A DNA stretch of 64,000 nt from Escherichia phage ETEC-TG. This document shows positions 1,888-62,045 of the stretch, in pieces. The translations under genes were made by a program, and so were the position numbers. The notes below the pieces were generated by a model. That model saw only the letters and a list, made by a program, of their open reading frames with translations, ran no database searches and was not told the origin of the DNA. Within the stretch, counting starts at the first letter, position 1. Each line of letters opens with the position of its first letter. The stretch is from sequence record OR786310.1. One strand, written 5' to 3'.

Positions 1888-2293
1888 TACCCCTCCATTC
1901 AAGACAAGCCATAACTTTACGCCAATCACTTTCTGTAAGAAAAATCTCGTTTGCTTTCTTCCACAAATCTAAATCGTGAAGGGTTGGAATACGATATGTT
2001 AGTTCACAGAATCTATGCTCTTCTTCTGTAATATAACCAAAATGCAGAGCCACATCGTGAAACCAACACCAACCATGCATCTCTCGAACAACATGGTCAT
2101 GTTGAGACATTATTTTATGCCGTAAACCTAACCAACAAGGAACAGATACTTTAGTAGTCTTTAATCTGTGATCAACAGTATTAGAGTATTCAATAATAGC
2201 TGTCAGTTTCAATCGTGCTTTTTCTAAATCCTCATGGGTCACTTTGAAATAACTTTCTGAAAGATATCCACACATATTAATAACCTCCTTCAA
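1880..2293 (-). CDS. hypothetical protein
   Basis: 137 aa ORF, translationally coupled to neighbours. Confidence 0.4.
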   Translation of the reverse strand: MKEVINMCGYLSESYFKVTHEDLEKARLKLTAIIEYSNTVDHRLKTTKVSVPCWLGLRHKIMSQHDHVVREMHGWCWFHDVALHFGYITEEEHRFCELTYRIPTLHDLDLWKKANEIFLTESDWRKVMACLEWRGNE

Positions 2294-3218
2294 AAGGCTT
2301 AACTACATGTTGATTAGCTTTAAAACGTTCAACATAGTCGTTTTCGCCCATGTTTTCATATAGCTTAGTAATAACATAAAAGTTTTCCCAAGCATATTCC
2401 CTAAACCAACCACTAGTGATGGATGTGCAGACTTTAGATAAAGCCATTATAAAACTTTGCTTAGGGGTTGGACCTCCGATCTCTTCACCGAAAGGAATTT
2501 GTGAACGTTCCAAAGCCAAAACACACGCTTCTTCATAAACACCTAACAGGCGCACATGTTTTGGTTGAGCAAAAAACTTTTCTTTGCTGGTCATAACTTC
2601 ACTTCCATCTTTCATATAAGATTTATATGCTGGAGCATCCATTACCGCGATTGCTTCATGGATAGAATCATGATCATAAACATACGGAACCTCATCACCT
2701 TTAAAGAAGTCTTTACTTTTTACGTTTAAGTTCGGATGAGAGTAAGTGTATGTTTCTTTCTCACGCAACTCATAAATACTCTTAAGATTTTCTGGGATCT
2801 TTGCACCCAGTGACCGCATGAAATGAATATCTTTCATAGTTTTAAAGAAGTGAGGACTATCCTTTTTAAAACGATGACTCATTTTAAGAAGGTAGAGCAC
2901 ATCTAAAGGAGCAACAACATGTCCAGCGTAAGTTCGACGAACATCATCAGAATCTTCACAATAACTAATCAAAGCTTCTGTGCTATCTCCTTGAGAAGCA
3001 ATATCGTATTCCAAATGTGCACCAGCTATCATTTTGACATGGCCTTTGTTTCCTTTACGTTCTACAAGTTCAACAAACTCATCTTGAGAGAACATTTTTG
3101 ATAATTCTTCCCACTCTTGTTCTGTACACAGGTAATCTAAATCTACACAAGGGCGATACAAGTCTTTTCCCATGTCCATAGCATGAATTTGTAATGCACG
3201 GCTACCAATTAACACCAT
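2277..3218 (-). CDS. hypothetical protein, possible nucleotidyltransferase fold
   Basis: 313 aa; N-terminal GS followed by CVDLDYL resembles the hG[GS]...[DE]h[DE]h signature of Pol-beta-like NTases. Confidence 0.4.
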   Translation of the reverse strand: MVLIGSRALQIHAMDMGKDLYRPCVDLDYLCTEQEWEELSKMFSQDEFVELVERKGNKGHVKMIAGAHLEYDIASQGDSTEALISYCEDSDDVRRTYAGHVVAPLDVLYLLKMSHRFKKDSPHFFKTMKDIHFMRSLGAKIPENLKSIYELREKETYTYSHPNLNVKSKDFFKGDEVPYVYDHDSIHEAIAVMDAPAYKSYMKDGSEVMTSKEKFFAQPKHVRLLGVYEEACVLALERSQIPFGEEIGGPTPKQSFIMALSKVCTSITSGWFREYAWENFYVITKLYENMGENDYVERFKANQHVVKPFEGGY

Positions 3219-9276: not shown

Positions 9277-9969
9277 TTAAATAGCGGTTTCTTCGAAATC
9301 CGCCACATTTACGAGATTAATATTTTCAGATTTAGAAGTCAAGTTGTTTTCTGCAACAGATTTTTCTTCAGTATCCGCCTCGTTACCTGCCACGTTACGA
9401 GGTTCTTCTTCACCGTAGGGATTACCGAATTTCAAAAGATTGATTAATTCTTCTTTGGAGAAGTTTTCTAAATCATCATCTGTTAATTCAATAATCTCAT
9501 CTTGTTCTTCAATAAATGTTTCACCACCAGAAAAAGCATCTCGCTTTTTAGCTACTTCCATAGCCTGTTCTGGTGTTGCTCCTGCATCAAGAGCAGCTAA
9601 AGCAAAGTCTGACCCGCTTCCTACCGCATAATATTCTTCATCAATCGGATATGCACGTGTTGGGTTGTTACCTTCGTGCAGGAAAATACGTCCGTCTGGA
9701 TGAACAACAAGTGCAATAAACTCTTCATCTTCTTTATCTGGATCAGAGTGAATCATCAAACCAGGGACAGCATCACGTGCTGCTTCGCACTGTAGATTTT
9801 GTTCAAACCATTGAAAGAAAGAAAGCACGGAGGTCAGACGACCAGCACCACCTACAAGGTAATCTCCAATTTTTCGGACCTTTTTGAAATTAATAGAATC
9901 TACACGTCCACCAAAAGTTACCTTACCGTCACTCAAAATCTTATTTTTGGTCGCAATAATTGTCGTCAC
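9277..9969 (-). CDS. HslV-like (ClpQ) Ntn-hydrolase peptidase with acidic C-terminal extension
   Basis: MTTIIATKNKILSDGKVTFGG...KKVRK...GGAG...GSGSDFALAALDAG follows the HslV pattern (Thr2 nucleophile, GSG motif); about 90 extra D/E-rich residues at the C-terminus. Confidence 0.6.
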   Translation of the reverse strand: MTTIIATKNKILSDGKVTFGGRVDSINFKKVRKIGDYLVGGAGRLTSVLSFFQWFEQNLQCEAARDAVPGLMIHSDPDKEDEEFIALVVHPDGRIFLHEGNNPTRAYPIDEEYYAVGSGSDFALAALDAGATPEQAMEVAKKRDAFSGGETFIEEQDEIIELTDDDLENFSKEELINLLKFGNPYGEEEPRNVAGNEADTEEKSVAENNLTSKSENINLVNVADFEETAI

Positions 9970-10504: not shown

Positions 10505-11264
10505 TTAAATAAACACTTCAGTAATCAGTTTAGACAAACGTCCACGTTTATTATCGTCCGTTGTCAGTTCAACATATCCAATAAAATCTACAATTGGCTC
10601 ACGAACACCTTCTTCATTCTCTGGATATAAAAGTTCCAAAATTTGATGCAGACCATTGCTACGTTTTTTAATTGCATATGTCTGGCGAACATCGCCTAAT
10701 ACAATAACATGCGTATTAATACCTGCACGTTCAATAAGAAGTTTAAGTGTTTCTGTTGACATAAGTTGTGCTTCGTCAATAATGACGATTGTATTATCCA
10801 GGGTAGCCCCCAACAAATAGTTAGGAATATTCAATTCGATCTTACCTGATCCAATATCGTTTTCCAATTTGTTGGCTGTCATGAATTGCTGGAAAATACG
10901 TTTTGTAGATTCATAGTGTGCTGCTAGTTTATCTGTTTTATCCCCAGACAAGAAACCAATCTGGTCATCTCCGACTTCAGTAGGGTTCTTGATAAAAAGT
11001 AGTTTACGGAAGTCTCCTGAACGAAGCATCTGCAAAGCTTTCCATAAAGCAACAGAGGTTTTACCAGTCCCTGCCGGAGCATTTACAACAGTCAGATCAT
11101 TCCAAATCATGCTTTGAACAATCTTATTTTGGTCCCCTTCAGGCATAAATTCATCTAAACGGTAATCGTCATTACCTACCGCTTTTGCTGCATAACGGCT
11201 TTCAATCTTTGCTGAATTAGCCAGTTTCTGCCGTTGTGTTTTAGCTGCGGTTTTATTTCCCATA
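10505..11264 (-). CDS. phoH: PhoH-like ATPase
   Basis: Walker A NAPAGTGKTSVAL and PhoH-like layout. Start moved to MGNKTAAK preceded by AAAAGGAG; the longer track ORF begins inside an upstream hairpin. Confidence 0.85.
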
Positions 11265-11300
11265 GTAGCACTCCTTTTAGAAGGGGCCGAAGCCCCTTTA

Positions 11301-11801
11301 TTAGTTGTAAGCATCTAAAGTTCCAGAAGTCAGAACTTTAATTACTCGTTCAGCACGGTTTGGCGTCTGGCTATACCATCGGCTTTTACGCATGTTTTTA
11401 CCTGCTTGAGTATAATATGCATTGCTGATTAAAGTCAAGCTATTTTGAAACCCTTCAGCACCTTTTAACCCCAACTGGAAAACCATGTTGATTATTCCCA
11501 ATTTACGAGTATCACTAACCTTATCATAGATTGGTGATAAGATAGTACTGTTTTTTATGTCTCTCTTCACTTTTGCAACATCGTCAGCAAAGATTTGACG
11601 GGCTTCTTTTTCTGTGATAACTCCATTAGTCTTACGACCAAGAAGATTATCTAAGATTTGAATAGCCTTTGCTTTATCTTTTATTTTAGTCAGAAGGTGT
11701 CCTATACCGACTGTCCAATAACCAAGATGGTCTTGATAAACAGTAAGCTTCAGTCCTTCATCGACTCGTAGCATATCAAACTCATCTACTACTTTAGCCA
11801 T
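11301..11801 (-). CDS. endolysin, T4-type lysozyme (GH24)
   Basis: N-terminus MAKVVDEFDMLRVDEGLKLTVYQDHLGYWTVGIGHLLTK matches the T4 lysozyme catalytic region (E11/D20/T26 context). Confidence 0.9.
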   Translation of the reverse strand: MAKVVDEFDMLRVDEGLKLTVYQDHLGYWTVGIGHLLTKIKDKAKAIQILDNLLGRKTNGVITEKEARQIFADDVAKVKRDIKNSTILSPIYDKVSDTRKLGIINMVFQLGLKGAEGFQNSLTLISNAYYTQAGKNMRKSRWYSQTPNRAERVIKVLTSGTLDAYN

Positions 11802-11963
11802 TTACTTCCTATTCGTCGTCTCCTACTCCGTGATCCAACTCGTTAAACAACAGATGTTCTGGAGAAGTTTCACGTTTTGGTTTCGTTTTCTTTATGTTGG
11901 ACTTCAGCTCATTTGCCAAAGCACGAGAAAAGATCTTACGTTTCTGTTTACTTTTCATAATTG

Positions 11964-12224
11964 TTACTCCGCAATTTGAGCCATGAGATCACGCAGTTCG
12001 GTAAAACCGCCTACGTATGTTACCTCCCCGTTCACTTCAGACAGAATTTGTGGAAATGTGCGTGGAGGAACTCCGGTAAGATCAACAACTGTTTTAGTCA
12101 TTGATTCTAAATCATAGTCTTGATCAAGACTTAAATATTCAAACTGTTTATTGCGCATGGTTAATAGTTGTTTTGACATTTCGCAAAATTGACAGTTAGG
12201 TTTACCAAAAATTACAAATTCCAT
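11964..12224 (-). CDS. glutaredoxin/NrdH-like redoxin
   Basis: 86 aa with N-terminal CQFC (CxxC) active site in thioredoxin-fold context. Confidence 0.75.
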   Translation of the reverse strand: MEFVIFGKPNCQFCEMSKQLLTMRNKQFEYLSLDQDYDLESMTKTVVDLTGVPPRTFPQILSEVNGEVTYVGGFTELRDLMAQIAE

Positions 12225-13066
12225 TACCTCTCCTTATTAAGTAATACTGCTAAAGACTGTTCAATACCTTTATTTAAATCTGATTTTGTAAGATAGTGAC
12301 TGGTTACTAGTTGTGACTTCACCGGACGTGCTGCTGGAGCATTATAGGTTGAAGCTGATACCGCCGATATCTTAACAGGTTCTGGCATCTGTGTCAAGAT
12401 CTTTTCCGCAAACTCCGCCCAAGAAATAAAATGGCTTCCTGCAAAATGGTAAGTCTTAACAGACCTTGACCAACCTGTTTTTAATACTTCAAAAATAGCT
12501 TCTGCTAAATCTGGAGCATATGTTGGACAAGAGAACTGATCAGCAACAATAATAAAATCACGTTGTCCATCATTATAGCGAGACAACATCGTTTTTAGAA
12601 AGTTATTTCCAAATTCGCTATATACTGAGGCTGTTCGAATAATATATGCATTTGGGTTAACTCCTCGCACCATTTTTTCACCAAGTTCTTTCGTATACCC
12701 ATAATTGTTTATTGGGTTAGGTGTAGTATCTTCAAAAATAGGATGAGAATAATTAAAAATATAGTCTGTAGAAATATGCACAAAATCAATTTTAAGTTTG
12801 CTGCACACTGCCGCAATATTTGCAGGTCCATACGCATTAACAGCCAAAGCAGTAGCAAAATCATGTTCCGCTTTATCTACAGCCGTATAAGCAGCGCAGT
12901 TAATAACACCGTCTACATAATCTTCAACAATAGCGTTTCGCACAGCTTCAAAATTTGTAATATCTACACGTTCTTTAGGATAAATTAAAGATACATTTGA
13001 AGGAACCACTTTACGTAAAGCTTGTCCCAGTTGTCCATTACCACCCAATACCAGATATGTTAGCAT
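12224..13066 (-). CDS. rmlD: dTDP-4-dehydrorhamnose reductase
   Basis: N-terminal Rossmann GGNGQLG, STDYIF and YGYTK (YxxxK) motifs typical of RmlD. Confidence 0.8.
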   Translation of the reverse strand: MLTYLVLGGNGQLGQALRKVVPSNVSLIYPKERVDITNFEAVRNAIVEDYVDGVINCAAYTAVDKAEHDFATALAVNAYGPANIAAVCSKLKIDFVHISTDYIFNYSHPIFEDTTPNPINNYGYTKELGEKMVRGVNPNAYIIRTASVYSEFGNNFLKTMLSRYNDGQRDFIIVADQFSCPTYAPDLAEAIFEVLKTGWSRSVKTYHFAGSHFISWAEFAEKILTQMPEPVKISAVSASTYNAPAARPVKSQLVTSHYLTKSDLNKGIEQSLAVLLNKER

Positions 13067-13626
13067 ACACCCTCACTACGCAACTGTTGAAAAGATTTAG
13101 CCATTGCATCTTTTGTTGATAAGATAGGTTTAAAATCTTCATCAAAAATCATATCAAAGCCCCAATCGATCCCTATATCAGGATCATCCCAACGTAAACT
13201 TTGTTCGCTAGAAGGGTCGTATGGAGTTGTGCATTTGTATTCAAAGATAGCATCCATACTCAAAACTATAAAACCATGTGCCAAACCAGGTGGAAGCCAA
13301 AATTGCGTATGGTGTCGTGCACGAAGAACAACACCGTCCCAAGCACCGTAAGTTGGACTATCTTTACGTAAATCTACAGCGAAATCCAATACTTCTCCAC
13401 TTACACAACGAACAAGCTTACCTTGCGGGTTGTTTGTTTGGAAGTGCATTCCTCGCAAAACACCGAAGTTTGATTTAGACATGTTATCTTGAACGAAAGT
13501 TTGTCTACCAATAATATCTTCGTATTTTTGTTCATTGTATGTTTCTAAAAAGAAACCACGATCATCTTTATAAACGTCTGGTTTGATAATTACCGCACCT
13601 TCAATTTTTGTTTTTTCTACTTTCAT
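13060..13626 (-). CDS. rmlC: dTDP-4-dehydrorhamnose 3,5-epimerase
   Basis: DDRGFFLETY and RGMHFQ cupin motifs characteristic of RmlC. Confidence 0.85.
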   Translation of the reverse strand: MKVEKTKIEGAVIIKPDVYKDDRGFFLETYNEQKYEDIIGRQTFVQDNMSKSNFGVLRGMHFQTNNPQGKLVRCVSGEVLDFAVDLRKDSPTYGAWDGVVLRARHHTQFWLPPGLAHGFIVLSMDAIFEYKCTTPYDPSSEQSLRWDDPDIGIDWGFDMIFDEDFKPILSTKDAMAKSFQQLRSEGVC

Positions 13627-13635
13627 TTTCTCTCC

Positions 13636-13962
13636 TTACCAGACATGTTGAGAAATAATAGTTTCCGTTTTAATGTTATATTTTTCAAGTAGCTCTGCAT
13701 AGGCTTCTTTTGCATTCTCATTTAATTGCTCAAGATCTACAGCTACGCTTCCTTCTCCGCCTTCTAAATAAATACCATATATGCAATAAGACTCATCAGC
13801 ATCGTAGAAAGGAGAGATGCGACTTAAGTCCAGACCTTCTTGTAAGAACCAGTTAAAATCTCCGTCAAATTCTTCTTCAATTCTAGGATCTTCTCCTACA
13901 GCCTCTTCCCACTTATTAAAAGGTGCACCCTGTAACATACGCCATTCGATATCAATACCCAT
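13636..13962 (-). CDS. hypothetical acidic protein
   Basis: 108 aa ORF. Confidence 0.4.
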   Translation of the reverse strand: MGIDIEWRMLQGAPFNKWEEAVGEDPRIEEEFDGDFNWFLQEGLDLSRISPFYDADESYCIYGIYLEGGEGSVAVDLEQLNENAKEAYAELLEKYNIKTETIISQHVW

Positions 13963-14254
13963 TTTTCATCTCCTCCTCTTGAGCAGCTTTAATAATTGCT
14001 TCATAAATATCGTAAGCAATGCCTCCACAACATCTAGCTTCGAAAGCTATTGCTTCTGCAATGTGGTCTGTTAGTTCTCGTGGAATTCGGACATACTCTT
14101 TTTCACTCTCCATCTTCTACCTCCGACCCTGCTTTTTCAAATACTACTACTCGTCCTTCACCATGACAATTCAGGCAAGGAAATGTTACCATAATTTCCA
14201 CTTCCATCTGTCCAGTCCCACCACACACAGGACAAAAAATAAGTTTTTCAGCCA

Positions 14255-14464
14255 TTATTCCTCCTTAATTATTTCAAACTTGGCAACACCATTTACAATA
14301 ATATGACCACAAGACATAACTCCTAGCCAAGGATCGCCGTTTTTCTTCAGGCGTTTACCGAATACATCACAAAAACCATTCTTCATTTCGGAGGCTTCAT
14401 AAGAAGCCCCTTTGTCAAAAACGTCTTTGAATGTGTCGATTATACCAACACATCTCAAAATCAT
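14255..14464 (-). CDS. hypothetical protein
   Basis: 69 aa ORF immediately downstream of nrdB. Confidence 0.35.
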   Translation of the reverse strand: MILRCVGIIDTFKDVFDKGASYEASEMKNGFCDVFGKRLKKNGDPWLGVMSCGHIIVNGVAKFEIIKEE

Positions 14465-15549
14465 TAGAAGTCAAGCTCCTCATCATCAGAGAGATCTTTG
14501 TTAGCTGAATTCAATTTGTAATTAGTTAACTGAATCTCTTGGGCTGCTGACTGAATCAAATCAGGATTCAACCATTTTTCCATCCAAGCTAAAGGACTAT
14601 GTTTAGGTGCTTTAAACTTGGCTTTCATTTTCAATCGACGATAAATAGGAGCAGCATTGAAATAAACCCACTGTTTAGACAATTCGGCGTTAAGACCTAC
14701 AATAAAACGACCTTCACTAAACAGGTAGTCACACCACTGTTCCTCTTGTTCAACAACAGTGTCGAGGATCAAAGTCAACTCTTCAATATTGTCTTCGTAA
14801 ATTTTACGCCAAATTGGGTCATGCATCAATGCATCAATTACAGCATAATCCATCTTAACATGCAAGATTTCATCTAGCATAATTTTCTGGATCAGCTTAC
14901 AAGCCCCAACAAACAATTGTTGTTCTGCCATAGCAAAAGTAGCAGAGAAGGAAGATATAAACTGAATACCTTCTAATCCAATCAGGGCTACCATCCCTTT
15001 AAGAATCAGCAATCGAAGTTCATCGTTAGCTTCAATCAATCCTAGAGCATACTTATGACCAGCTTCTTCCAACTGACCCATGATATCAGCAATGATACCC
15101 ATACGATTGAAAATTTTATCATTAATCATAATCTGATTGATGACTTCAATTGGATCTGGAGTACATTGACGGATTATTTCAGAATACGTTAACGCATGGA
15201 GAACTTCCATTTCACTCTGCTTCATCATCATAGCACAGGCTTCATTGTTACTCAAGAATGGAGAGAACAAAGTGATGATTGATTTTGCAAGAGAATCATT
15301 TTCCCATTGGAACGATAAGTTTTTAATCATAACATCGTAGTTGTTTTTAGAACAAGCTACGAAATCTTTACGTGTCTGATCCAAGTTAACTTCGTTTTCA
15401 TCCCAATCTTGTGCTTTTTGAAGTTTGTAGAGTTTGTGCATTTCTGGATAAGTTACGTTAACAGAATCAAAGATCCCTAATTGCTCCCCCAAAAATACTG
15501 GATATTTTCCTGTTTTGTAAACTTCGTTGTGTAAATTAATTGCTGCCAT
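14464..15549 (-). CDS. nrdB: ribonucleotide reductase class Ia small subunit
   Basis: 361 aa with diiron/tyrosyl-radical R2 layout, RBS GAGGAG, adjacent to nrdA. Confidence 0.9.
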   Translation of the reverse strand: MAAINLHNEVYKTGKYPVFLGEQLGIFDSVNVTYPEMHKLYKLQKAQDWDENEVNLDQTRKDFVACSKNNYDVMIKNLSFQWENDSLAKSIITLFSPFLSNNEACAMMMKQSEMEVLHALTYSEIIRQCTPDPIEVINQIMINDKIFNRMGIIADIMGQLEEAGHKYALGLIEANDELRLLILKGMVALIGLEGIQFISSFSATFAMAEQQLFVGACKLIQKIMLDEILHVKMDYAVIDALMHDPIWRKIYEDNIEELTLILDTVVEQEEQWCDYLFSEGRFIVGLNAELSKQWVYFNAAPIYRRLKMKAKFKAPKHSPLAWMEKWLNPDLIQSAAQEIQLTNYKLNSANKDLSDDEELDF

Positions 15550-15592: not shown

Positions 15593-16249
15593 TTAGCCTC
15601 GAAATACTGTTTTTGTTTCCGCCAGGTGCCAATAGAAATCCGCCTTGTTTACAAGAGTGTTGTACACCTCTGGATAAAAATGTTCTTCCTCTTTGTAACG
15701 ATCCGCTGTTTCCCTGATTGACTTAGCTTTATCCTTTAGCCAAGCGAAGTGTGCCTCTTCCTCTGTAGCGAAGTAGCCTAAATGCTTACCTTTACTTCCA
15801 GAAGCTTTTGCATAAATCTTACCATCTTTCCTAACATGTGCTCCTAGTAAGTATTTTCTTTCATACCTTTTAGCATAACTTAAGAGTGTATTTATGTAAG
15901 GAGGAACAAACCTACAATATTCAGGACAATAAACAGTATTTCCTTCAAGAACAAGATCTTTATCTAAAACAAAGCCTTCCACGCTATGTTCTTGATACCA
16001 GTTATCAAAGTTTGAAAAGGTGAACCAAGCATCACACACGGTAACATCTTTATAACCTGGTCTAATGTTTTCCATACGATATGCACGATTAAACATACCT
16101 TTCCAAGCTGCATAAGAAGGGTCTATGAATGTATTAACCCTTTTCCCATTGATAACACCACCTTCCCACAATCTACGTTCAACATCCACAATCAAGGGGA
16201 TTTCTCCCCTCTCTGTGAGAACGGTAACTTTACGTTTACCCTTCTTCAT
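15593..16249 (-). CDS. putative HNH-AP2 homing endonuclease (possibly degenerate)
   Basis: Sits between nrdA and nrdB; C-terminal LGYFATEEEAHFAW is AP2-like; central VLDKDLV...CPEYCRFV resembles an HNH-family core with altered catalytic residues. Confidence 0.5.
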   Translation of the reverse strand: MKKGKRKVTVLTERGEIPLIVDVERRLWEGGVINGKRVNTFIDPSYAAWKGMFNRAYRMENIRPGYKDVTVCDAWFTFSNFDNWYQEHSVEGFVLDKDLVLEGNTVYCPEYCRFVPPYINTLLSYAKRYERKYLLGAHVRKDGKIYAKASGSKGKHLGYFATEEEAHFAWLKDKAKSIRETADRYKEEEHFYPEVYNTLVNKADFYWHLAETKTVFRG

Positions 16250-16260
16250 CTGTTCTCCTA

Positions 16261-18504
16261 CTACATTTTACAGGCACTACACCCTTCGTCTTCAGAATCT
16301 TCTTGTGCTAAAGAGTCTGCTGATTTTGTTCTACTATTAAGGTAATACAACGACTTACCACCCAGTCTAGCAAAATTCAGAATAAACTGCATCTCAGCTT
16401 TCACTGATAAACGTCCACCTACCAATTTAGAATAATCTAGCCAAGAATCACAAGAAATTCCTTGGTCCGTAAACTTGGTAAAGATACCATACATTTCTGC
16501 AAGGTCTTTAGCCGGAGTGTCCCAGGCGGACTGGTAGAACATTTTCAGTTTTTCGTAGTCTGGAACAATAAATAATACACTACCTTTCTGACTTTGTTTA
16601 TACATAATAGTATCACGAACAGGATACAGAGAGTTAGTAGTATTGCTTACCAAACTGCTGGACTCATTAGGTGCGATAGCAGCCAAGACACTGTTACGGA
16701 TACCACCTTGTTCAATGATTTCAGCACGTAAGCCTTCCCAGTCCATTTTAAGATCAAAATTACCGATACTATCTACTGTTTTAGCATAAGTGTCAATTGG
16801 TAGCCAACCTTGAGGCCATTTGGTCTTATCAATCCATTCCGCATTACCTTTTTCCTTAGCCAGACGCAGAGAGGCTTTTGCCAACCAGAAGTAATGACGT
16901 TCTGCAAGTTCATGCATTAATTTTTTAGCATAAGCATCTGAATAATTTACAAAATTACTTGCCAAGTAATGCGCTAAGTTTGTAATGCCTACACCAATAG
17001 ATCTACGTGCTTTAGCAGTTATTTCGTTATGTTTAAATGGATAATCCATTGTTTCAATAACATTGTCAATTGTCAATACAGTGTAGTATGCAACATCCTC
17101 ATATTCTTCAGGTAAGACACGACCAGCAACAATAGAAGATAAGAAGCATAAAGCCAATTCTTGATCTTCTGTATTCTCCCCAGTAAAGAGATCCGGCATA
17201 CTGTGGAAAGCTTTAGTTGGTAAGAAGATCTCTTGACACAGGTTTGATTGATACACCGTATCCAGGAAAGGTGTATGGTTGTTAACGTTGTCAGCAAAGA
17301 ACATGTAAATACGTCCTGTTTCTGCACGTTGAACAATAATCTCTGTCAGAAGATCACGAGCCTTAACAAATTTTTTCTTAATGCGACGACGACTTACTTT
17401 GTCATAAACTGCATCAAACTCCTCTTCACTTTTATACAAAGCTTCATAAAGTTCAGGAGCATCATCACAACTAACTAACATCCAATCTTCGTTTTTTGCT
17501 GCTCGACGCAAGAACGAACGGTTAACAACAATAGAATAATCCAGTTTGTCTACTCGTTTATCTATAGGTGTTGTTGGATTTTTCAGTCGAATCAGATCGT
17601 CGAAGTCTGGTTCAAGTATGGTAAAGGTAACTGTAGCACTACCTCCACGGCTTGCTTGCTTCGAAGCTCCAACACTATCTTCCATCCATTTCAGATACGG
17701 AAGAAGACCACCATGAATAATACGATTATTCTTAACACCTTGACCTGTGGCACGAGTTTGAAGATTAACACCAATACCTGCGTTATTCAACGTATACTCA
17801 TGAGCTAAGTAATTAGCAATGGCTAAAGACTCTGCTGTGTCATCTGCACGGAATAAACAACAAGACGCACTTCCTTTGATTGGAGTTCGTAGAGTTGTCA
17901 GATATGGTGATGGCAGATTAATCTTAAGATCGCTAACATAAGTATACAGTTTTTTAATATCTTCTATACGGCGTTCTTTTGGTTGGATCTCCATAACCTT
18001 CATTGCGATACCAATGAAAAGAAACTGTGGAGACTCATGCACCACATCGTTTACTGCATCTCGGATAAGATATTTATCCACCATCTGACGTAAAACAGAA
18101 TAGCCATAAGTTAGATTTTTATTATGCTTTACAATCTTACCAATTTCTTTGATCTCTTCATCAGTATAATCCATTTTAGCCCAATGTCCACGTTCTACCA
18201 TATCATGATAAAAGGTATTCAGTGAAGGGATACTGTGGTATCCCCCATGAGCCTGTTTGTAAATCATACCCAGAAGAAGTCTTCCTGCCATATCACTGTA
18301 AGCTTGTGTTTTCTTGTCAATACACGCTGCAATCATTGCTTTATGCAGATCACGTGTAGACACACCGTCATAACACCGCTTCACAGCTTCTAATTCAATT
18401 TCAGACCAGTTTAGTTTACCTGCTGCAAATTCAGACCACTTGCGAAGTTTTTCTGGATTAAACTCCTCTGTCTTACCGTTAGATTTAGTTACAAAACGAA
18501 TCAA
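16261..18504 (-). CDS. nrdA: ribonucleotide reductase class Ia large subunit
   Basis: 747 aa, N-terminal ATP-cone-like region (VTKSNGKTEEFNPEKL), size and context with nrdB. Confidence 0.9.
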   Translation of the reverse strand: MIRFVTKSNGKTEEFNPEKLRKWSEFAAGKLNWSEIELEAVKRCYDGVSTRDLHKAMIAACIDKKTQAYSDMAGRLLLGMIYKQAHGGYHSIPSLNTFYHDMVERGHWAKMDYTDEEIKEIGKIVKHNKNLTYGYSVLRQMVDKYLIRDAVNDVVHESPQFLFIGIAMKVMEIQPKERRIEDIKKLYTYVSDLKINLPSPYLTTLRTPIKGSASCCLFRADDTAESLAIANYLAHEYTLNNAGIGVNLQTRATGQGVKNNRIIHGGLLPYLKWMEDSVGASKQASRGGSATVTFTILEPDFDDLIRLKNPTTPIDKRVDKLDYSIVVNRSFLRRAAKNEDWMLVSCDDAPELYEALYKSEEEFDAVYDKVSRRRIKKKFVKARDLLTEIIVQRAETGRIYMFFADNVNNHTPFLDTVYQSNLCQEIFLPTKAFHSMPDLFTGENTEDQELALCFLSSIVAGRVLPEEYEDVAYYTVLTIDNVIETMDYPFKHNEITAKARRSIGVGITNLAHYLASNFVNYSDAYAKKLMHELAERHYFWLAKASLRLAKEKGNAEWIDKTKWPQGWLPIDTYAKTVDSIGNFDLKMDWEGLRAEIIEQGGIRNSVLAAIAPNESSSLVSNTTNSLYPVRDTIMYKQSQKGSVLFIVPDYEKLKMFYQSAWDTPAKDLAEMYGIFTKFTDQGISCDSWLDYSKLVGGRLSVKAEMQFILNFARLGGKSLYYLNSRTKSADSLAQEDSEDEGCSACKM

Positions 18505-19280: not shown

Positions 19281-20279
19281 TCACCATTTAGTATGATTTG
19301 TTAAAAGTTGACGATGTTGAATCCAGCCTTTGAAATTGCCAGACCAAAACTTACCATTACGATCTACATGGGTAATACCTGGTTCCCAAGAGTTAAAATC
19401 CCAAGGAGCATTGATAAACAAATCTTCAAAACAGTTCTCCCCATATTGTTCGCATGTTTCTTGCATTGGGGTGGCTTGATGTTCAAACGGAGAAGCATGA
19501 ACCTTGCGCCCAGTCAGCAAACGACCATAGATATCTAAAGCTTTATCTTTAGTTGCATTCAAACGACGATAACTAACCTGTGCACAACACGAAGCTGAAA
19601 TAGCTTTGGCTTCTTCCAAAGTAAGCACAACAACTTCTCCAGATTCATCTTGAACATAGTATCCACCAAAAACAAAATGATCGTCACCTTCTGTGCCAAT
19701 ATTATCATAGAAATGGTTTACATAAGGTGTGTGCCATTGCCCTGGTTTCAGCACTTCTGGTGTAGATTCTTCATACTCTTTGTGCATCTCTTTAGCCAAA
19801 GCTTCGATAGTAGGATCGGCTTCTTTGTCATCACGTAGCCACCAGAAATTTTCATATTCTGTTGCTGTCAGAACTGTTTTAATTCGTTGGAAAGGTTCCA
19901 GAAGACGGTTTGCAACTTGTTTGTGGTACCCTGCCAAAGAGAATTCTTCTGCAAAACGTGCTGCACTAAGCGCGGCAAGATCCCACCACTCTTGAGCAGT
20001 ATAACCTGCATCAATAAGAGCATCATGGTCAACACCTTTGTCCTGCATACCAGGTTGGTTAGCCCCGAAACGATAAGGACGAGCAGGCTGATTTCGAACC
20101 ATTTCGATCAGTGTTTTAACAGGTATAGCACGGCTAGAAGCAGCATTACGACTGAACAGGCGGTGAGTCATCAGTTCTGAATGAATAATACGTGGATATT
20201 CAAGTTCGAAAGTTACAATCTCTTTTCCGTCTTCAGTGATGGAATGTGCAATAATACTAGCCGAAATCTGTTTTGTCAT
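19281..20279 (-). CDS. thyX: flavin-dependent thymidylate synthase ThyX-like
   Basis: ELMTHRLFSRNAASS matches the ThyX RHR-x7-S signature with the first Arg replaced by Thr. Confidence 0.7.
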   Translation of the reverse strand: MTKQISASIIAHSITEDGKEIVTFELEYPRIIHSELMTHRLFSRNAASSRAIPVKTLIEMVRNQPARPYRFGANQPGMQDKGVDHDALIDAGYTAQEWWDLAALSAARFAEEFSLAGYHKQVANRLLEPFQRIKTVLTATEYENFWWLRDDKEADPTIEALAKEMHKEYEESTPEVLKPGQWHTPYVNHFYDNIGTEGDDHFVFGGYYVQDESGEVVVLTLEEAKAISASCCAQVSYRRLNATKDKALDIYGRLLTGRKVHASPFEHQATPMQETCEQYGENCFEDLFINAPWDFNSWEPGITHVDRNGKFWSGNFKGWIQHRQLLTNHTKW

Positions 20280-20288
20280 TTTTTCTCC

Positions 20289-20897
20289 TTAGTTTTTAAA
20301 ATTGTTCAAAGTGTTAAAAACATCCAAACATGTTAGCCACTGATCTTCTAAACCTGTGATCACAACATTTGGTTTTTTCTTTAGTTCTTCTAGATGGTTA
20401 TCTTTATAAGGCGTATTAAAATATATTTTAACCACTTCATCTGGAAAATATAGTAGGTTATCAGCCCTGTCATCTATGGCTATATCACAAGGCAATAAAT
20501 ATTTTTCTTTTGTAGCAAAAAAGCCGTTACCAGATCCTTTGCTAAAATCAATCGTGTCCAATGTTCTTAAAACATGTTTATGTTTAGAACTTAAGTGACC
20601 ACCTTTTGTCACACTTGCGATCAAAAGATTGCCACCTTTCCTTGAAACATACTTTAAGAAATCTGGCATACCTGGAACAAAACCCATTGTATCGTAGAGA
20701 TGAGGATTATCCAGAAATCCGTAAGGATCTATGTTGAACTCTTCCCTGAAACCAGGAAAATAGTTGGTAAGATCGTAATCTGCATTTTTTGTGAATGTGT
20801 CGATTTTAACACCAAGGCCACTAATCTTATTCAACCATTCTAACCAAGCAACATCTAACGGAGCCACAACTAAATCCCAATCACATACTATCTGCAT
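20289..20897 (-). CDS. putative HAD-family nucleotidase
   Basis: N-terminal IVCDWDLVV (DxD-type HAD motif I) and later DDR motif. Confidence 0.45.
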   Translation of the reverse strand: MQIVCDWDLVVAPLDVAWLEWLNKISGLGVKIDTFTKNADYDLTNYFPGFREEFNIDPYGFLDNPHLYDTMGFVPGMPDFLKYVSRKGGNLLIASVTKGGHLSSKHKHVLRTLDTIDFSKGSGNGFFATKEKYLLPCDIAIDDRADNLLYFPDEVVKIYFNTPYKDNHLEELKKKPNVVITGLEDQWLTCLDVFNTLNNFKN

Positions 20898-35192: not shown

Positions 35193-35267
35193 GGCCCTGT
35201 AGCTCAATGGGAGAGCTGTCGGCTCATAACCGATAGGTAGCTGGATCGAAACCAGCCAGGGCCACCA
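35193..35267 (+). tRNA. tRNA-Met (CAT)
   Basis: Manual cloverleaf: acceptor GGCCCTG/CAGGGCC, anticodon loop CTCATAA, T-stem GCTGG/CCAGC, encoded CCA. Confidence 0.65.
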
Positions 35268-35269
35268 AC

Positions 35270-35344
35270 GTCTTTATGGTGTAATGGATAGCACAGGAGT
35301 CTTCTAAACTCTTAGTCAAGGTTCGATTCCTTGTAAAGACACCA
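35270..35344 (+). tRNA. tRNA-Arg (TCT)
   Basis: Acceptor GTCTTTA/TAAAGAC, anticodon loop CTTCTAA, T-loop TTCGATT, encoded CCA. Confidence 0.65.
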
Positions 35345-35540
35345 GAACATTTTAACATGAATTAGCTCAAGTGATTTGAACCCACTACTGATCATGGTGG
35401 CAGAGAATGAGGCAAGTATGTCAGACATTATAAACAAAGGCCACGGTTATATTAGAAGACATAAATGCTCGAAGAGCACCGTTCGTGGAGAACGGGGGTT
35501 GGTGGAGTCACCATTCATGGTAAAATGTTTTAAAAAACTA

Positions 35541-35570
35541 TTGACAACTAACATTATTTTATGTTAGATT
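35541..35570 (+). promoter_or_regulatory. sigma70-like promoter (TTGACA, 18 nt, TAGATT) internal to tRNA array
   Basis: -35 TTGACA 35541..35546, -10-like 35565..35570, 8 nt upstream of tRNA-Ser. Confidence 0.4.
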
Positions 35571-35578
35571 ATAAGTAT

Positions 35579-35669
35579 GGAAGGGCAAATCGACGTGGCG
35601 ACGAAAACGGTCTTGAAAACCGCCGAGCTTGAAAGAGCCTTGGGAGTTCGACTCTCCCTCCTTCCGCCA
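35579..35669 (+). tRNA. tRNA-Ser (TGA), class II
   Basis: Acceptor GGAAGGG/TCCTTCC, anticodon loop CTTGAAA, long variable arm, T-arm GGGAG-TTCGACT-CTCCC, discriminator G, CCA. Confidence 0.6.
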
Positions 35670-35673
35670 GATT

Positions 35674-35759
35674 GGTAGATTGGTGAAATGGTAGCCACGA
35701 CAGTTTGCTAAACTGTAGTCGGAAACGGCGTGTAGGTTCGAGTCCTACATCTACCGCCA
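35674..35759 (+). tRNA. tRNA-Ser (GCT), class II
   Basis: Acceptor GGTAGAT/ATCTACC, anticodon stem-loop ACAGT-TTGCTAA-ACTGT, long variable arm, discriminator G, CCA. Confidence 0.6.
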
Positions 35760-35900
35760 AGTTCTTTTTAATATAGCTTACTTTAGCAGAGTAAATCTTC
35801 GGCAAGTGGCGGTAACCACTTTACCGATAACTCATAGTTAGTGGTGTGAACACTGGCTATTTTAAAAAGAATTTAAAAAGAATTTAAATATTAGTATTTA

Positions 35901-35988
35901 GGTGAGTTAATTCCGTAGGGGTAGCGGGGCAGACTGTAAATCTGTTATCATTGCGATTCGGGTGGTTCGACTCCATCACTCACCACCA
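35901..35988 (+). tRNA. tRNA-Tyr (GTA), class II
   Basis: Acceptor GGTGAGT/ACTCACC, anticodon stem-loop GCAGA-CTGTAAA-TCTGT, long variable arm, discriminator A, CCA; extra nucleotides between acceptor and D-stem. Confidence 0.55.
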
Positions 35989-35994
35989 AATTAA

Positions 35995-36080
35995 GATGAG
36001 TTGGCTGAATGGTTTAAGCGGCGGACTGTTAATCCGTGTTCGAAAGAACGATATAGGTTCAAATCCTATACTCATCGCCA
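35995..36080 (+). tRNA. class II (long variable arm) tRNA with GTT anticodon (Asn codons)
   Basis: Acceptor GATGAGT/ACTCATC, D-stem GCT/AGC, anticodon stem-loop GCGGA-CTGTTAA-TCCGT, variable hairpin GTTC-GAAA-GAAC, T-arm ATAGG-TTCAAAT-CCTAT, discriminator G, CCA. Confidence 0.55.
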
Positions 36081-36087
36081 GAATTAT

Positions 36088-36165
36088 GGACTTGTAGAGT
36101 TAAGGTAAACCCCCAGTCGCCAAGAGGCTTCTGGAATTGCAGGTATCGAATCCTGCCGAGTCCCA
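36088..36165 (+). ncRNA. irregular tRNA-like element (anticodon region not canonical)
   Basis: Acceptor GGACTTG pairs with CGAGTCC; T-arm GCAGG with 8-nt loop TATCGAAT; the anticodon position is a 4-bp stem CCAG/CTGG enclosing 14 nt; fills the slot between two tRNAs. Confidence 0.3.
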
Positions 36166-36170
36166 GCTTT

Positions 36171-36245
36171 GCTCCTATAGTATAATGGCTATTACAACGG
36201 TTTTGTAATCCGTGGATCTCTGTTCGATTCAGAGTGGGAGCACCA
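36171..36245 (+). tRNA. tRNA-Thr (TGT)
   Basis: Acceptor GCTCCTA/TGGGAGC (one GU pair), anticodon loop TTTGTAA, T-arm CTCTG-TTCGATT-CAGAG, CCA. Confidence 0.6.
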
Positions 36246-36522
36246 ACACAACATTAAGAGCACTGTGATTGATCGTCGTATCCTGTGCACAAGGTCTGTT
36301 CGAAAGACAGTGTTCTTAGTATTGTGTTGATCACACAAAAAAAGAGTTACCTGAAACTTGACCGGAGTAGGGTTGGATGGGGCAAAAGAAGAAGCGGCTC
36401 TCCCATCGACAGCAACGAAGAATAATATTTGACTTTGGTTTTGTATTATTTTAAGTTAGCTTACCGAACGTAGGGCTAGTCACCCAACGGGATACTCGTC
36501 ACTGTCCCACTCAATAAAACTA

Positions 36523-36552
36523 TTGACAACCAATAGTAAAATGTAGTATAGT
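36523..36552 (+). promoter_or_regulatory. sigma70-like promoter (TTGACA, 18 nt, TATAGT)
   Basis: -35 TTGACA 36523..36528 and -10 TATAGT 36547..36552, about 12 nt upstream of tRNA-Gly. Confidence 0.45.
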
Positions 36553-36563
36553 AAAGATGTAGG

Positions 36564-36637
36564 GCGTTCTTGGTGTAGCGGTAGCATTCCGTCCTTCCAA
36601 GTCGGCGGCACGAGTTCGATCCTCGTAGAACGCTCCA
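36564..36637 (+). tRNA. tRNA-Gly (TCC)
   Basis: Acceptor GCGTTCT/AGAACGC, anticodon loop CTTCCAA, T-arm ACGAG-TTCGATC-CTCGT, CCA. Confidence 0.6.
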
Positions 36638-36735
36638 AATTATTTAATAAAGGGTTGCCAGAAAACTTTCTCTTTTACTCATGGTTTTCTCCTTCTCTCA
36701 CACCTCTTCTGGTTGCCCTTCATTAAATGATTTAT

Positions 36736-36811
36736 TGGTTTGTAGTGTAGTCCGGTAGCACACGACACTTTGACTGTCGTAGGTTTGGTTCAAATCCAGA
36801 CAGACCAGCCA
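36736..36811 (+). tRNA. tRNA-Gln (TTG)
   Basis: U1-A72 acceptor TGGTTTG/CAGACCA, anticodon loop CTTTGAC, T-loop TTCAAAT, CCA. Confidence 0.55.
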
Positions 36812-36904
36812 TATAACAAAGGTGAGTCACTACCTCAAGTGTGAAGTTAAAAACGAGGAGCCGCCGAACACTTTCTTTTGCGGTGTACCTTTAGAATGTT
36901 ATGA

Positions 36905-36981
36905 CGGAATTTAGCTCAGTTTGGTAGAGTGTACGCTTTGGGAGCGTATTGTCGCAGGTTCGAATCCTGCAATTCCGACCA
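36905..36981 (+). tRNA. tRNA-Pro (TGG)
   Basis: C1-G72 acceptor CGGAATT/AATTCCG, D-arm GCTC-AGTTTGGTA-GAGT, anticodon loop TTTGGGA, T-arm GCAGG-TTCGAAT-CCTGC, CCA. Confidence 0.65.
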
Positions 36982-36987
36982 ATTAAA

Positions 36988-37061
36988 TGTTTCGTAGTTC
37001 AATGGTAGAACCCACGACTGATAATCGTGAGATACAAGTTCGATTCTTGTCGAAACAACCA
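36988..37061 (+). tRNA. tRNA-Ile (GAT)
   Basis: Acceptor TGTTTCG/CGAAACA, D-arm GTTC-AATGGTA-GAAC, anticodon stem-loop CACGA-CTGATAA-TCGTG, T-loop TTCGATT, CCA. Confidence 0.65.
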
Positions 37062-37063
37062 GT

Positions 37064-37133
37064 TTCCCGTTAGACTTACAGGATAAGAGTTCCACAATTT
37101 ATTGTGACGCTGGTTCGAATCCAGCACGGGATA
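37064..37133 (+). ncRNA. tRNA-like element with collapsed anticodon loop
   Basis: Acceptor TCCCGT/ACGGGA, D-arm with GG loop, canonical T-arm GCTGG-TTCGAAT-CCAGC, but the anticodon arm is CACAA-TTTA-TTGTG (4-nt loop); no encoded CCA. Confidence 0.35.
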
Positions 37134-37139
37134 CATAAT

Positions 37140-37218
37140 AGCGGGATAGAGGAGTCTGGTCGTCCTCGCCAGTTTCATATGCTGGAGATCATTGGTTCAA
37201 ATCCAATTCCCGCCTCCA
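37140..37218 (+). tRNA. tRNA with CAT anticodon (Met or Ile2)
   Basis: Acceptor (A)GCGGGA/TCCCGC(C), anticodon stem-loop CCAGT-TTCATAT-GCTGG, T-arm ATTGG-TTCAAAT-CCAAT, CCA; position 1 may be unpaired. Confidence 0.5.
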
Positions 37219-62037: not shown

Positions 62038-62045
62038 GAGTAAAA

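Follow-up and report, generated by a model that had tools for sequence, protein, structure and literature searches.

RmlC and RmlD of Escherichia phage ETEC-TG, probable remainder of a four-gene rhamnose operon after loss of rmlB and rmlA

Escherichia phage ETEC-TG (OR786310.1) encodes, within the 64,000-nucleotide (nt) stretch analyzed here (the window), a deoxythymidine diphosphate (dTDP)-4-dehydrorhamnose 3,5-epimerase (RmlC) and a dTDP-4-dehydrorhamnose reductase (RmlD), followed by a glutaredoxin-fold protein (grx). We consider it likely that RmlC and RmlD are functional enzymes left behind when rmlB and rmlA were deleted, that they are fed by an intermediate made by the host enzymes RffH and RffG, and that their product is used by phage glycosyltransferases on a target that is probably not DNA, with the glutaredoxin serving the phage ribonucleotide reductase. 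The genes, the pathway and the variant lacking rmlA/rmlB are already present in the literature and in public annotation: a full pathway for making dTDP-rhamnose was noted in 2020, with speculation about DNA glycosylation (Olsen et al., 2020, PMC7552041), and ESCO37 was reported in 2023 to be without the thymidylyltransferase and dehydratase (PMC10269720). Added here are the deletion mechanism and its scar, evidence of selection on rmlC and rmlD (rmlCD), an explanation based on complementarity with the host, and a co-conserved glycosyltransferase cluster as the probable consumer of the sugar. The feature itself is unremarkable and was annotated before, in a phage genus that has been sampled well; its value is modest, as a natural experiment in which about one-third of sequenced Phapecoctavirus have lost rmlA/rmlB and appear to keep rmlCD under purifying selection, matching what E. 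coli supplies.

The rmlC-rmlD-grx cluster and the missing rmlB-rmlA segment

Positions are given in the numbering of the window, and genes lie on the minus strand unless stated.

11964–12224, minus strand: grx, glutaredoxin-fold protein, 86 amino acids; PF00462 and C11-Q-F-C14
12224–13066, minus strand: rmlD, dTDP-4-dehydrorhamnose reductase, 280 amino acids; TIGR01214 and PF04321
13060–13626, minus strand: rmlC, dTDP-4-dehydrorhamnose 3,5-epimerase, 188 amino acids; TIGR01221 and PF00908
13627–13635, minus strand: scar of the deletion, with a hybrid ribosome-binding site (coding strand GGAGAGAAA), from the alignment with phage SKA64
13636–13962, minus strand: conserved 108-amino acid open reading frame (ORF), phrog_15453; left flank of the deletion

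A preliminary description of the window, made from the sequence alone, had named RmlC, RmlD and a CxxC glutaredoxin, and both the identities and the coordinates were borne out by profile scores and by exact agreement of the three ORFs. RmlC scored 225.4 bits against TIGR01221 (equivalog cut-off 155.75) and 224.1 bits against PF00908 (cut-off 27; E value 1e-66), and phmmer matched it over its full length to S. enterica RmlC (1DZR; E value 4e-56). In that alignment His61, Lys70, Tyr130, and Asp173 correspond to His63, Lys73, Tyr133, and Asp170 of 1DZR; the catalytic His/Asp dyad, the Tyr acid and the substrate-binding Lys are all present. The mono-epimerase NovW was also matched (E value 9e-30) and, because mono-epimerases share the RmlC fold, double epimerization at C3 and C5 by the window protein is putative. 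RmlD scored 239.1 bits against TIGR01214 (equivalog cut-off 224.05) and 246.9 bits against PF04321 (cut-off 27; E value 3e-73), and its closest solved structures are the RmlD proteins 3SC6 and 1VL0 (E values about 1e-44). Alignment to these two shows that G8-GNGQLG (GxxGxxG), S99-T-D-Y, and Y122-xxx-K126 (YGYTK) are kept, and the Thr/Tyr/Lys triad is formed by T100, Y122, and K126. Loss of catalytic residues on close alignment, which the preliminary description had named as grounds for doubting its account, was therefore found in neither protein. RmlC and RmlD are, judged by these profiles and residues, genuine enzymes and probably active. They belong to the same families as steps 3 and 4 of the bacterial RmlABCD pathway (S. 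enterica; rfbBDAC in E. coli) and share its catalytic residues for these steps; unlike the bacterial systems, the window encodes steps 3 and 4 only, in a phage nucleotide-metabolism operon rather than an O-antigen cluster.

The genes are tightly packed. The rmlD start codon overlaps the rmlC stop by 7 nt (ATGCTAA), in line with the few nucleotides described earlier, and the grx start overlaps the rmlD stop by 1 nt (TAATG). The two preceding steps are missing, as had also been proposed. When the window and the complete 148-kb genome of iGC_PHA_EC001, a phage 98% identical to the window, were searched by tblastn with proteins from three related phages, no RmlA match was better than an E value of 0.3 and no RmlB homolog was found. 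The sole RmlB signal was weak short-chain dehydrogenase paralogy to RmlD (25–26% identity), as expected. The window does not encode a complete dTDP-L-rhamnose pathway, since neither RmlA nor RmlB is present.

The glutaredoxin scored 38.1 bits against PF00462 (cut-off 22.9), carries T-F-P and V-G-G-F motifs besides the CxxC, and matches phrog_22 ("thioredoxin domain"); it falls in no curated NCBIfam subfamily (GrxA, Grx3, or NrdH), with best scores of 25–33 bits against cut-offs of 84–90. RmlD works with NAD(P)H and has no requirement for a thiol reductant. The glutaredoxin is probably without a functional tie to RmlC/RmlD and is more plausibly a T4 NrdC-like reductant for the phage NrdAB, because it sits just downstream of nrdAB and RmlD has no need of it. 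Like the T4 NrdC type, it is a small CxxC redoxin encoded near phage nrdAB; it differs in its CQFC active site and in scoring below all curated subfamily cut-offs, and its proposed partnership with NrdAB derives from position. In all three Stephanstirmvirinae lineages examined, grx lies directly after rmlD, and it is nearly invariant within Phapecoctavirus.

The window is from a Phapecoctavirus (phAPEC8-like E. coli myoviruses of about 150 kb; Stephanstirmvirinae). Over 2.7 kb at and around the genes, identity is 99.7% with Escherichia phage dw-ec and 99.2% with anhysbys, and dozens more Phapecoctavirus genomes match this segment at 98% or above. The annotated anhysbys and iGC_PHA_EC001 genomes are collinear with the window, and their records already name dTDP-4-dehydrorhamnose 3,5-epimerase, dTDP-4-dehydrorhamnose reductase, and glutaredoxin. 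Two arrangements occur in the genus; because an IMG/VR scan with RmlC returned only two loci, they were compared among GenBank records instead. In SKA64, EP57, and phAPEC8, and in 41 full-length records overall, rmlB-rmlA (rmlBA) lies directly upstream of rmlC, and the rmlA stop codon overlaps the rmlC start codon. The contiguous arrangement of the window is found in 22 records, which represent 18 distinct phages of the 52 in the genus after removal of RefSeq duplicates (about one-third), including dw-ec, anhysbys, nepoznato, ESCO37, ZCKP1, Mt1B1_P17, and iGC_PHA_EC001. No rmlBA-like DNA was found in any of these rmlBA-less records; the full rmlB-rmlA-rmlC-rmlD-grx set is carried by roughly two-thirds of Phapecoctavirus. 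Nothing of substance separates the window from them: arrangement and junction are identical, and only 8 nt differ from dw-ec across rmlCD. At the nucleotide level, rmlC, rmlD, and grx of the window are 97–99% identical to those of phAPEC8 (JX561091/NC_020079) and of other members of the genus; in these phages too they lie between nrdAB and lysozyme-phoH, and their start and stop codons overlap in the same way. Compared with the phAPEC8-type cluster, the window is without the 1,876 bp of rmlB and rmlA and has a hybrid ribosome-binding site before rmlC.

Alignment with SKA64 revealed one clean gap in the window, in which 1,876 bp, exactly rmlB and rmlA, are missing. The missing segment lies between TAAGGAGA|ACTGATG at the rmlB start and GCGGAGA|GAAAATG at the rmlC start of SKA64. 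The coding strand of SKA64 reads TGGTAA-GGAGA-ACTG-ATG at rmlB and GCG-GAGA-GAAA-ATG at rmlC, and that of the window reads TGGTAA-GGAGA-GAAA-ATG at rmlC, such that both ends of the deletion share a 5-nt microhomology, GGAGA, which is the Shine-Dalgarno pentamer. A remnant of rmlA survives in the window, because the 9 nt ahead of the rmlC start (GAGAGAAA with the following ATGA) match the 3' end of rmlA (E-R-K-stop); the RmlA C terminus is AERK* in SKA64 and AEGK* in phiWec179. The junction is identical in the 10 rmlBA-less genomes matched by the search pattern. Recombination between the two GGAGA motifs would have removed rmlB and rmlA and placed rmlC behind the former rmlB ribosome-binding site, giving a hybrid of the rmlB and rmlC sites.

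Both Justusliebigvirus alia and phiWec179 (proposed "Wecvirus") have the order nrdA-nrdB-small ORFs-rmlB-rmlA-rmlC-rmlD-grx-small ORF-lysozyme-phoH, and RmlA is kept throughout the phi92-like group. The rml genes of Phapecoctavirus, alia, and phiWec179 are all located between nrdAB and grx-lysozyme-phoH, and the ORF of 108 amino acids precedes rmlB in SKA64 and phiWec179, with one extra 65-amino acid ORF intervening in alia. The ancestral Stephanstirmvirinae state would be a four-gene operon, rmlB-rmlA-rmlC-rmlD, at this position. Comparison of the sequences indicates that rmlCD in the window is a derived deletion state of that operon and not a two-gene design, both by parsimony, since the two sister lineages have four genes, and from the retained rmlA remnant. 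Insertion of rmlBA into an rmlBA-less ancestor was rejected, as both outgroup lineages have four genes and the last rmlA codons are kept in rmlBA-less genomes.

The operon itself appears to be old and mosaic. Against E. coli K-12, identity is 50% for window RmlC with RfbC and 33% for window RmlD with RfbD. Phage RmlD homologs, many on contigs of about 150 kb, show 51–99% identity and stand apart, across a gap, from bacterial RmlD, which reaches at most 44%. These identities indicate a deep, phage-specific clade and long residence of the rml genes in phage genomes; recent capture from an E. coli host was rejected on the same figures. Between SKA64 and phiWec179, RmlB and RmlA are 95% and 97% identical, with synonymous divergence (pS) of 0.46 and 0.38, whereas RmlC and RmlD are 64% and 66% identical, with pS of 0.61 and 0.73. 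The corresponding backbone values (lysozyme and PhoH, with NrdB taken from the window) are 86–89% identity and pS of 0.54–0.79. This discordant divergence within one operon, between Phapecoctavirus and phiWec179, suggests that rmlBA and rmlCD are exchanged as separate recombination modules, and the boundary between the modules is the right edge of the deletion. Alleles of the 108-amino acid ORF at 13636–13962 are also mosaic between genera: the allele shared by the window and SKA64 has 92–93% amino acid identity to alia, far above the backbone, and 56–58% to phiWec179, and DIJ07P2 and KKP 3954 have an allele 81% identical to phiWec179.

Selection on rmlCD and probable supply of the missing steps by the host

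Loci were read from 17 Phapecoctavirus, 11 rmlBA-less and six rmlBA-bearing, and rmlC, rmlD, and grx are uninterrupted in every one. In all 11 rmlBA-less genomes, which differ by up to 5% at the nucleotide level, rmlC and rmlD are without frameshift, stop, or indel. Megablast with rmlCD gave a similar picture. Of the 60 matches listed, the 55 from Phapecoctavirus cover the query from end to end, each at exactly 1,403 nt, and the five that remain, in phiWec-type phages and PsgM04F, are 43 nt long. The ratio of nonsynonymous to synonymous polymorphism (pN/pS) in the rmlBA-less genomes is 0.079 for rmlCD (rmlC, 0.043; rmlD, 0.139), and in the rmlBA-bearing genomes it is 0.044 (rmlC, 0.025; rmlD, 0.066). 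Third codon positions hold 81 of the 109 segregating sites in the rmlBA-less set. These values point to strong purifying selection on rmlCD, perhaps slightly relaxed in the rmlBA-less phages, where the approximately 2-fold higher ratio makes some relaxation possible.

Other lesions in the operon fall only in rmlB or rmlA and none in rmlC or rmlD. In DIJ07P2, an internal deletion of 0.8 kb has joined rmlB codons 1–305 to rmlA codons 240–292; AV125 has a frameshift late in rmlA and KKP 3954 a frameshift in rmlB, either of which, as a single frameshift, could be a sequencing error.

The phage would depend on host dTDP-4-keto-6-deoxyglucose, as was suggested in the preliminary description, and the distribution of host genes supports this. 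E. coli RffH and RffG make dTDP-4-keto-6-deoxy-D-glucose for enterobacterial common antigen, whatever the O-antigen type. At coverage of at least 80%, the K-12 rffG-rffH segment is present in 5,306 of 5,426 complete E. coli genomes (98%). By blastn, K-12 rfbC is detectable in 2,199 of the same 5,426 (41%), a figure that is a lower bound where alleles have diverged. From the host intermediate, the phage would make dTDP-L-rhamnose or a related 6-deoxy-L-hexose. A phage with rmlCD only could thus complete the pathway in almost any E. coli, whereas reliance on host RmlC and RmlD would not allow this. The near-universal presence of RffH/RffG, together with the many strains that are without RmlC/RmlD, may explain why rmlA and rmlB are dispensable and rmlC and rmlD are kept.

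Glycosyltransferases and competing explanations

A search of the rest of the genome for rmlA/rmlB and glycosyltransferases had been proposed, and the tblastn search of iGC_PHA_EC001 described above served for the former; the same genome does contain four adjacent glycosyltransferase genes (OR437326.1, 87378–90522), outside the region equivalent to the window. The cluster adjoins a primase/helicase gene and lies two ORFs away from that for DNA polymerase. Its members are two GT-B-like paralogs, GT1 and GT2 (phrog_7162); a GT-A enzyme, GT3 (phrog_2456), whose DDD motif is invariant; and GT4, which belongs to phrog_14179. The cluster is conserved throughout Stephanstirmvirinae, at 99–100% in rmlBA-less phages, and GT1 occurs in 139 phage records from the lineages in which RmlC is found (Phapecoctavirus, phiWec-type phages, Justusliebigvirus, and some phages of Klebsiella). 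The most likely consumer of the phage-made sugar nucleotide, given this distribution, is the phage's own four-glycosyltransferase cluster.

Searches of PDB sequences with GT1 and GT3 returned nothing meaningful. An AlphaFold model of GT3 (mean pLDDT 87.7) was compared with the PDB by Foldseek and gave only generic GT-A matches at TM scores of about 0.4–0.5, namely STIV A197, vaccinia H3, TarP, and the LH3 glycosyltransferase domain, none of which is a DNA glycosyltransferase. The model supports a DxD-type GT-A enzyme and is silent on donor and acceptor. By sequence, GT3 is 26–28% identical over about 130 residues to glycosyltransferases of Cluster F mycobacteriophages, a likeness limited to the GT-A nucleotide-sugar-binding half and thus a resemblance rather than membership. 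Work by Freeman and colleagues in 2023 is said to have found that those mycobacteriophage enzymes glycosylate capsid and tail proteins. To our knowledge, no glycosylated virion protein has been reported in the Stephanstirmvirinae. Capsid and tail glycosylation by the mycobacteriophage enzymes is echoed elsewhere (PMC11256854).

The literature that could be searched on the function of this pathway in Stephanstirmvirinae contains speculation only and no tested function. The principal suggestion, stated in PMC7552041 and repeated in PMC10844046, is that dTDP-rhamnose is the donor with which phage glycosyltransferases modify DNA at a modified base, comparable with glucose on the hydroxymethylcytosine of T4 (Olsen et al., 2020). 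The location of the operon within a region of nucleotide and DNA metabolism is consistent with this, as is the position of the glycosyltransferase cluster beside replication genes. GT3 also has a weak match, below cut-off, to TET-associated glycosyltransferase (TAGT; E value 1e-3) and another to phrog_842, the T-even alpha-glucosyltransferase (E value 8e-6 over about 40 residues), both of which count for DNA glycosylation and against the reading that we prefer. Such a system, whether T-even hmC glucosylation or of the MT-TET-glycosyltransferase kind, should have an enzyme that prepares the acceptor base, but the full annotation of iGC_PHA_EC001, where unannotated ORFs were not searched exhaustively, lists no hydroxymethylase for dCMP or dUMP and no TET/JBP gene, and a Pfam scan of ten window ORFs between 1 and 9 kb found no TET/JBP or hydroxymethylase partner. 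The ThyX-type thymidylate synthase points to ordinary thymine and dTMP, and the predicted GT3 structure resembles a generic GT-A fold whose best matches lie outside the DNA glycosyltransferases. Furthermore, phi92-like relatives with the full pathway were "exceptionally susceptible" to restriction-modification "despite ... a putative dTDP glycosylation machinery" (Maffei et al., 2021, PMC8594841); these are plating data for the relatives and not for the window phage. We therefore regard DNA glycosylation as unlikely. A non-DNA target is probably to be favored, with low confidence in any particular one.

A similarly unlikely explanation is that RmlC and RmlD drain dTDP-4-keto-6-deoxyglucose from enterobacterial common antigen or O-antigen synthesis, altering the cell surface to exclude superinfecting phages or to reduce the loss of progeny on debris. 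The same intermediate feeds dTDP-Fuc4NAc for the common antigen (textbook knowledge), rffC follows rffH in the E. coli locus, the window phage has only the two consuming enzymes, and related phages recognize their hosts by surface glycans, the common antigen or NGR (PMC8594841; PMC11990801). Set against this, the ancestral arrangement, which is also that of the majority, has RmlA and RmlB as well, and these replenish the pool; the conservation of four phage glycosyltransferases points to use of the product rather than a sink; and turnover of envelope glycans is presumably slow relative to the lytic cycle. The preliminary description had listed diversion of a host sugar pool, surface remodeling for superinfection exclusion, and a donor for nucleic acid modification as roles among which sequence could not decide. 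That judgment stands, but the restriction data weaken DNA modification, and pure diversion fits poorly with an ancestral operon that encodes RmlA and RmlB.

Decay is a less probable account still: rmlCD would be functionless after the loss of rmlBA and merely still present. The arrangement did apparently arise by deletion, in a recombination hot spot of variable content, and pN/pS is higher in the rmlBA-less set; however, both genes are intact in every rmlBA-less genome read, a pN/pS of 0.08 is far from neutral, the catalytic residues are in place, all independent lesions lie in rmlB or rmlA, and the missing substrate is host-supplied in 98% of E. coli genomes. dTDP-L-rhamnose is an allosteric inhibitor of RmlA, and the operon lies among nrdAB, thyX, a deoxynucleotidase-like gene, and a MazG-like gene; from these points one could argue that the product feedback-inhibits host RmlA/RffH and so spares dTTP for phage DNA. 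This thymidine economy is the least probable of the explanations and very improbable in itself, as the majority of relatives have RmlA and RmlB of their own, enzymes that use up dTTP, and the co-conserved glycosyltransferases would be left unexplained.

Several other points weigh against functional enzymes that work on a host intermediate for the phage glycosyltransferases. The margin of RmlD over the TIGR01214 cut-off is narrow, at only 15 bits, and its predicted product could be L-rhamnose or 6-deoxy-L-talose, which are indistinguishable at this level. The link between rml genes and glycosyltransferases is suggested by their shared distribution in a single subfamily, equivalent to one or two events in evolution. 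The 41% frequency of rfbC is inflated by K-12 laboratory strains, with 483 matches at 99% identity or above. The pN/pS of rmlCD in the rmlBA-less set is about twice that in the rmlBA-bearing set (0.079 versus 0.044), and the finding of four lesion types in rmlBA and none in rmlCD is not significant when target size is considered (P about 0.11). The rmlBA-less set is not monophyletic in rmlCD distances, from which we infer that recombination has moved the deletion, its flanks, or both; much of the rmlCD polymorphism may therefore predate the deletion and have been shuffled by recombination. Loss of rmlBA followed by re-gain is conceivable because module exchange does happen, as seen in the rmlBA synonymous divergence below that of the backbone between Phapecoctavirus and phiWec179.

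With these points taken into account, active RmlC and RmlD supplied by RffH/RffG and serving the phage glycosyltransferases remain the likely explanation. A more specific proposal can be made only tentatively and is itself doubtful: RmlC and RmlD could be the host-independent, indispensable half of a phage glycan-building system in which the four glycosyltransferases add L-rhamnose (or 6-deoxy-L-talose) to a non-DNA target, either capsid and tail proteins or a glycan of the infected cell. If correct, this would be the first phage-directed glycosylation of such a kind in a coliphage, and the repeated loss of rmlA/rmlB, and never of rmlC/rmlD, would show for which steps the host is not a reliable source. 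The use to which a lytic coliphage puts dTDP-rhamnose and four glycosyltransferases, although its DNA has no protection against restriction, has been a question since the phAPEC8 and phi92 genomes, and pairs of rmlBA-bearing and rmlBA-less phages combined with host rffGH/rmlBA mutants offer a clean genetic handle on the purpose of the sugar.

Neighboring genes and other features of the window

The surroundings had been described as a nucleotide-metabolism block with nrdAB, thyX, and phoH, and Pfam matches agree. The rml genes are flanked as follows:

10505–11314, minus strand: phoH; Pfam PhoH
11301–11801, minus strand: T4-type lysozyme; Pfam Phage_lysozyme
11809–11958, minus strand: 49-amino acid ORF, downstream of grx
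14464–15549, minus strand: nrdB, upstream of the rml genes; Pfam Ribonuc_red_sm
15593–16249, minus strand: HNH endonuclease ORF of 218 amino acids between nrdB and nrdA; phrog_953, E value 1.5e-56
16261–18504, minus strand: nrdA, upstream of the rml genes; Pfam Ribonuc_red_lgC/lgN
19281–20279: Thy1/ThyX-type thymidylate synthase gene, upstream context

The products of nrdA and nrdB are the likely clients of the glutaredoxin. Downstream, the order from 11958 to 10505 (49-amino acid ORF, lysozyme, phoH) is the same in relatives. A scan of 10.4–18.8 kb for promoters and terminators found sites no more commonly than in shuffled sequence, and no minus-strand terminator was detected in this interval, which includes nrdAB to grx; the genes look co-transcribed. 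The HNH ORF at 15593–16249 is present in iGC_PHA_EC001 and absent from anhysbys, and for this reason it resembles a mobile homing endonuclease inserted into the ribonucleotide reductase operon. An ORF of 50 amino acids (14103–14255, minus strand), one of the small ones that separate nrdB from the rml genes, has a CxxCxGxG zinc-ribbon motif and matches the DnaJ central domain and Anti-TRAP only weakly, with scores that do not reach the cut-offs. Adjoining the ThyX-type gene is a homolog of NT5C-like 5'(3')-deoxyribonucleotidases (20289–20897, minus strand; PF06941, 25.1 bits, barely over the cut-off).

Further from the rml genes, a 230-amino acid protein (9277–9969, minus strand) has a weak Proteasome/HslV-type match (PF00227, E value 1e-5) and carries the annotation of an HslV-family peptidase in relatives, an uncommon gene in phages. 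A 313-amino acid protein (2277–3218, minus strand) consists of DUF7277 and DUF7275 (E value 2e-75) and overlaps a 137-amino acid ORF (1880–2293). The latter adjoins a gene at 1204–1929 that is annotated as a Dcm-type DNA methyltransferase in relatives and gave no Pfam match in the window. Ten tRNA genes (Met, Arg, Ser, Asn, Thr, Gly, Gln, Pro, Ile, and Met) lie on the plus strand at 35193–37218, at the switch of transcription direction and GC skew at about 34 kb. At the end of the window, G+C content is 0.51 at 62001–64000 compared with 0.37–0.43 elsewhere, and no complete plus-strand ORF of at least 100 amino acids is listed past 62037. The gene that follows the homolog of window ORF 59884–62037 in iGC_PHA_EC001 is annotated as a tail spike. 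Given the rise in G+C content and the tail spike at the equivalent place, 62001–64000 may be part of a horizontally acquired receptor-binding gene that runs off the end of the window.

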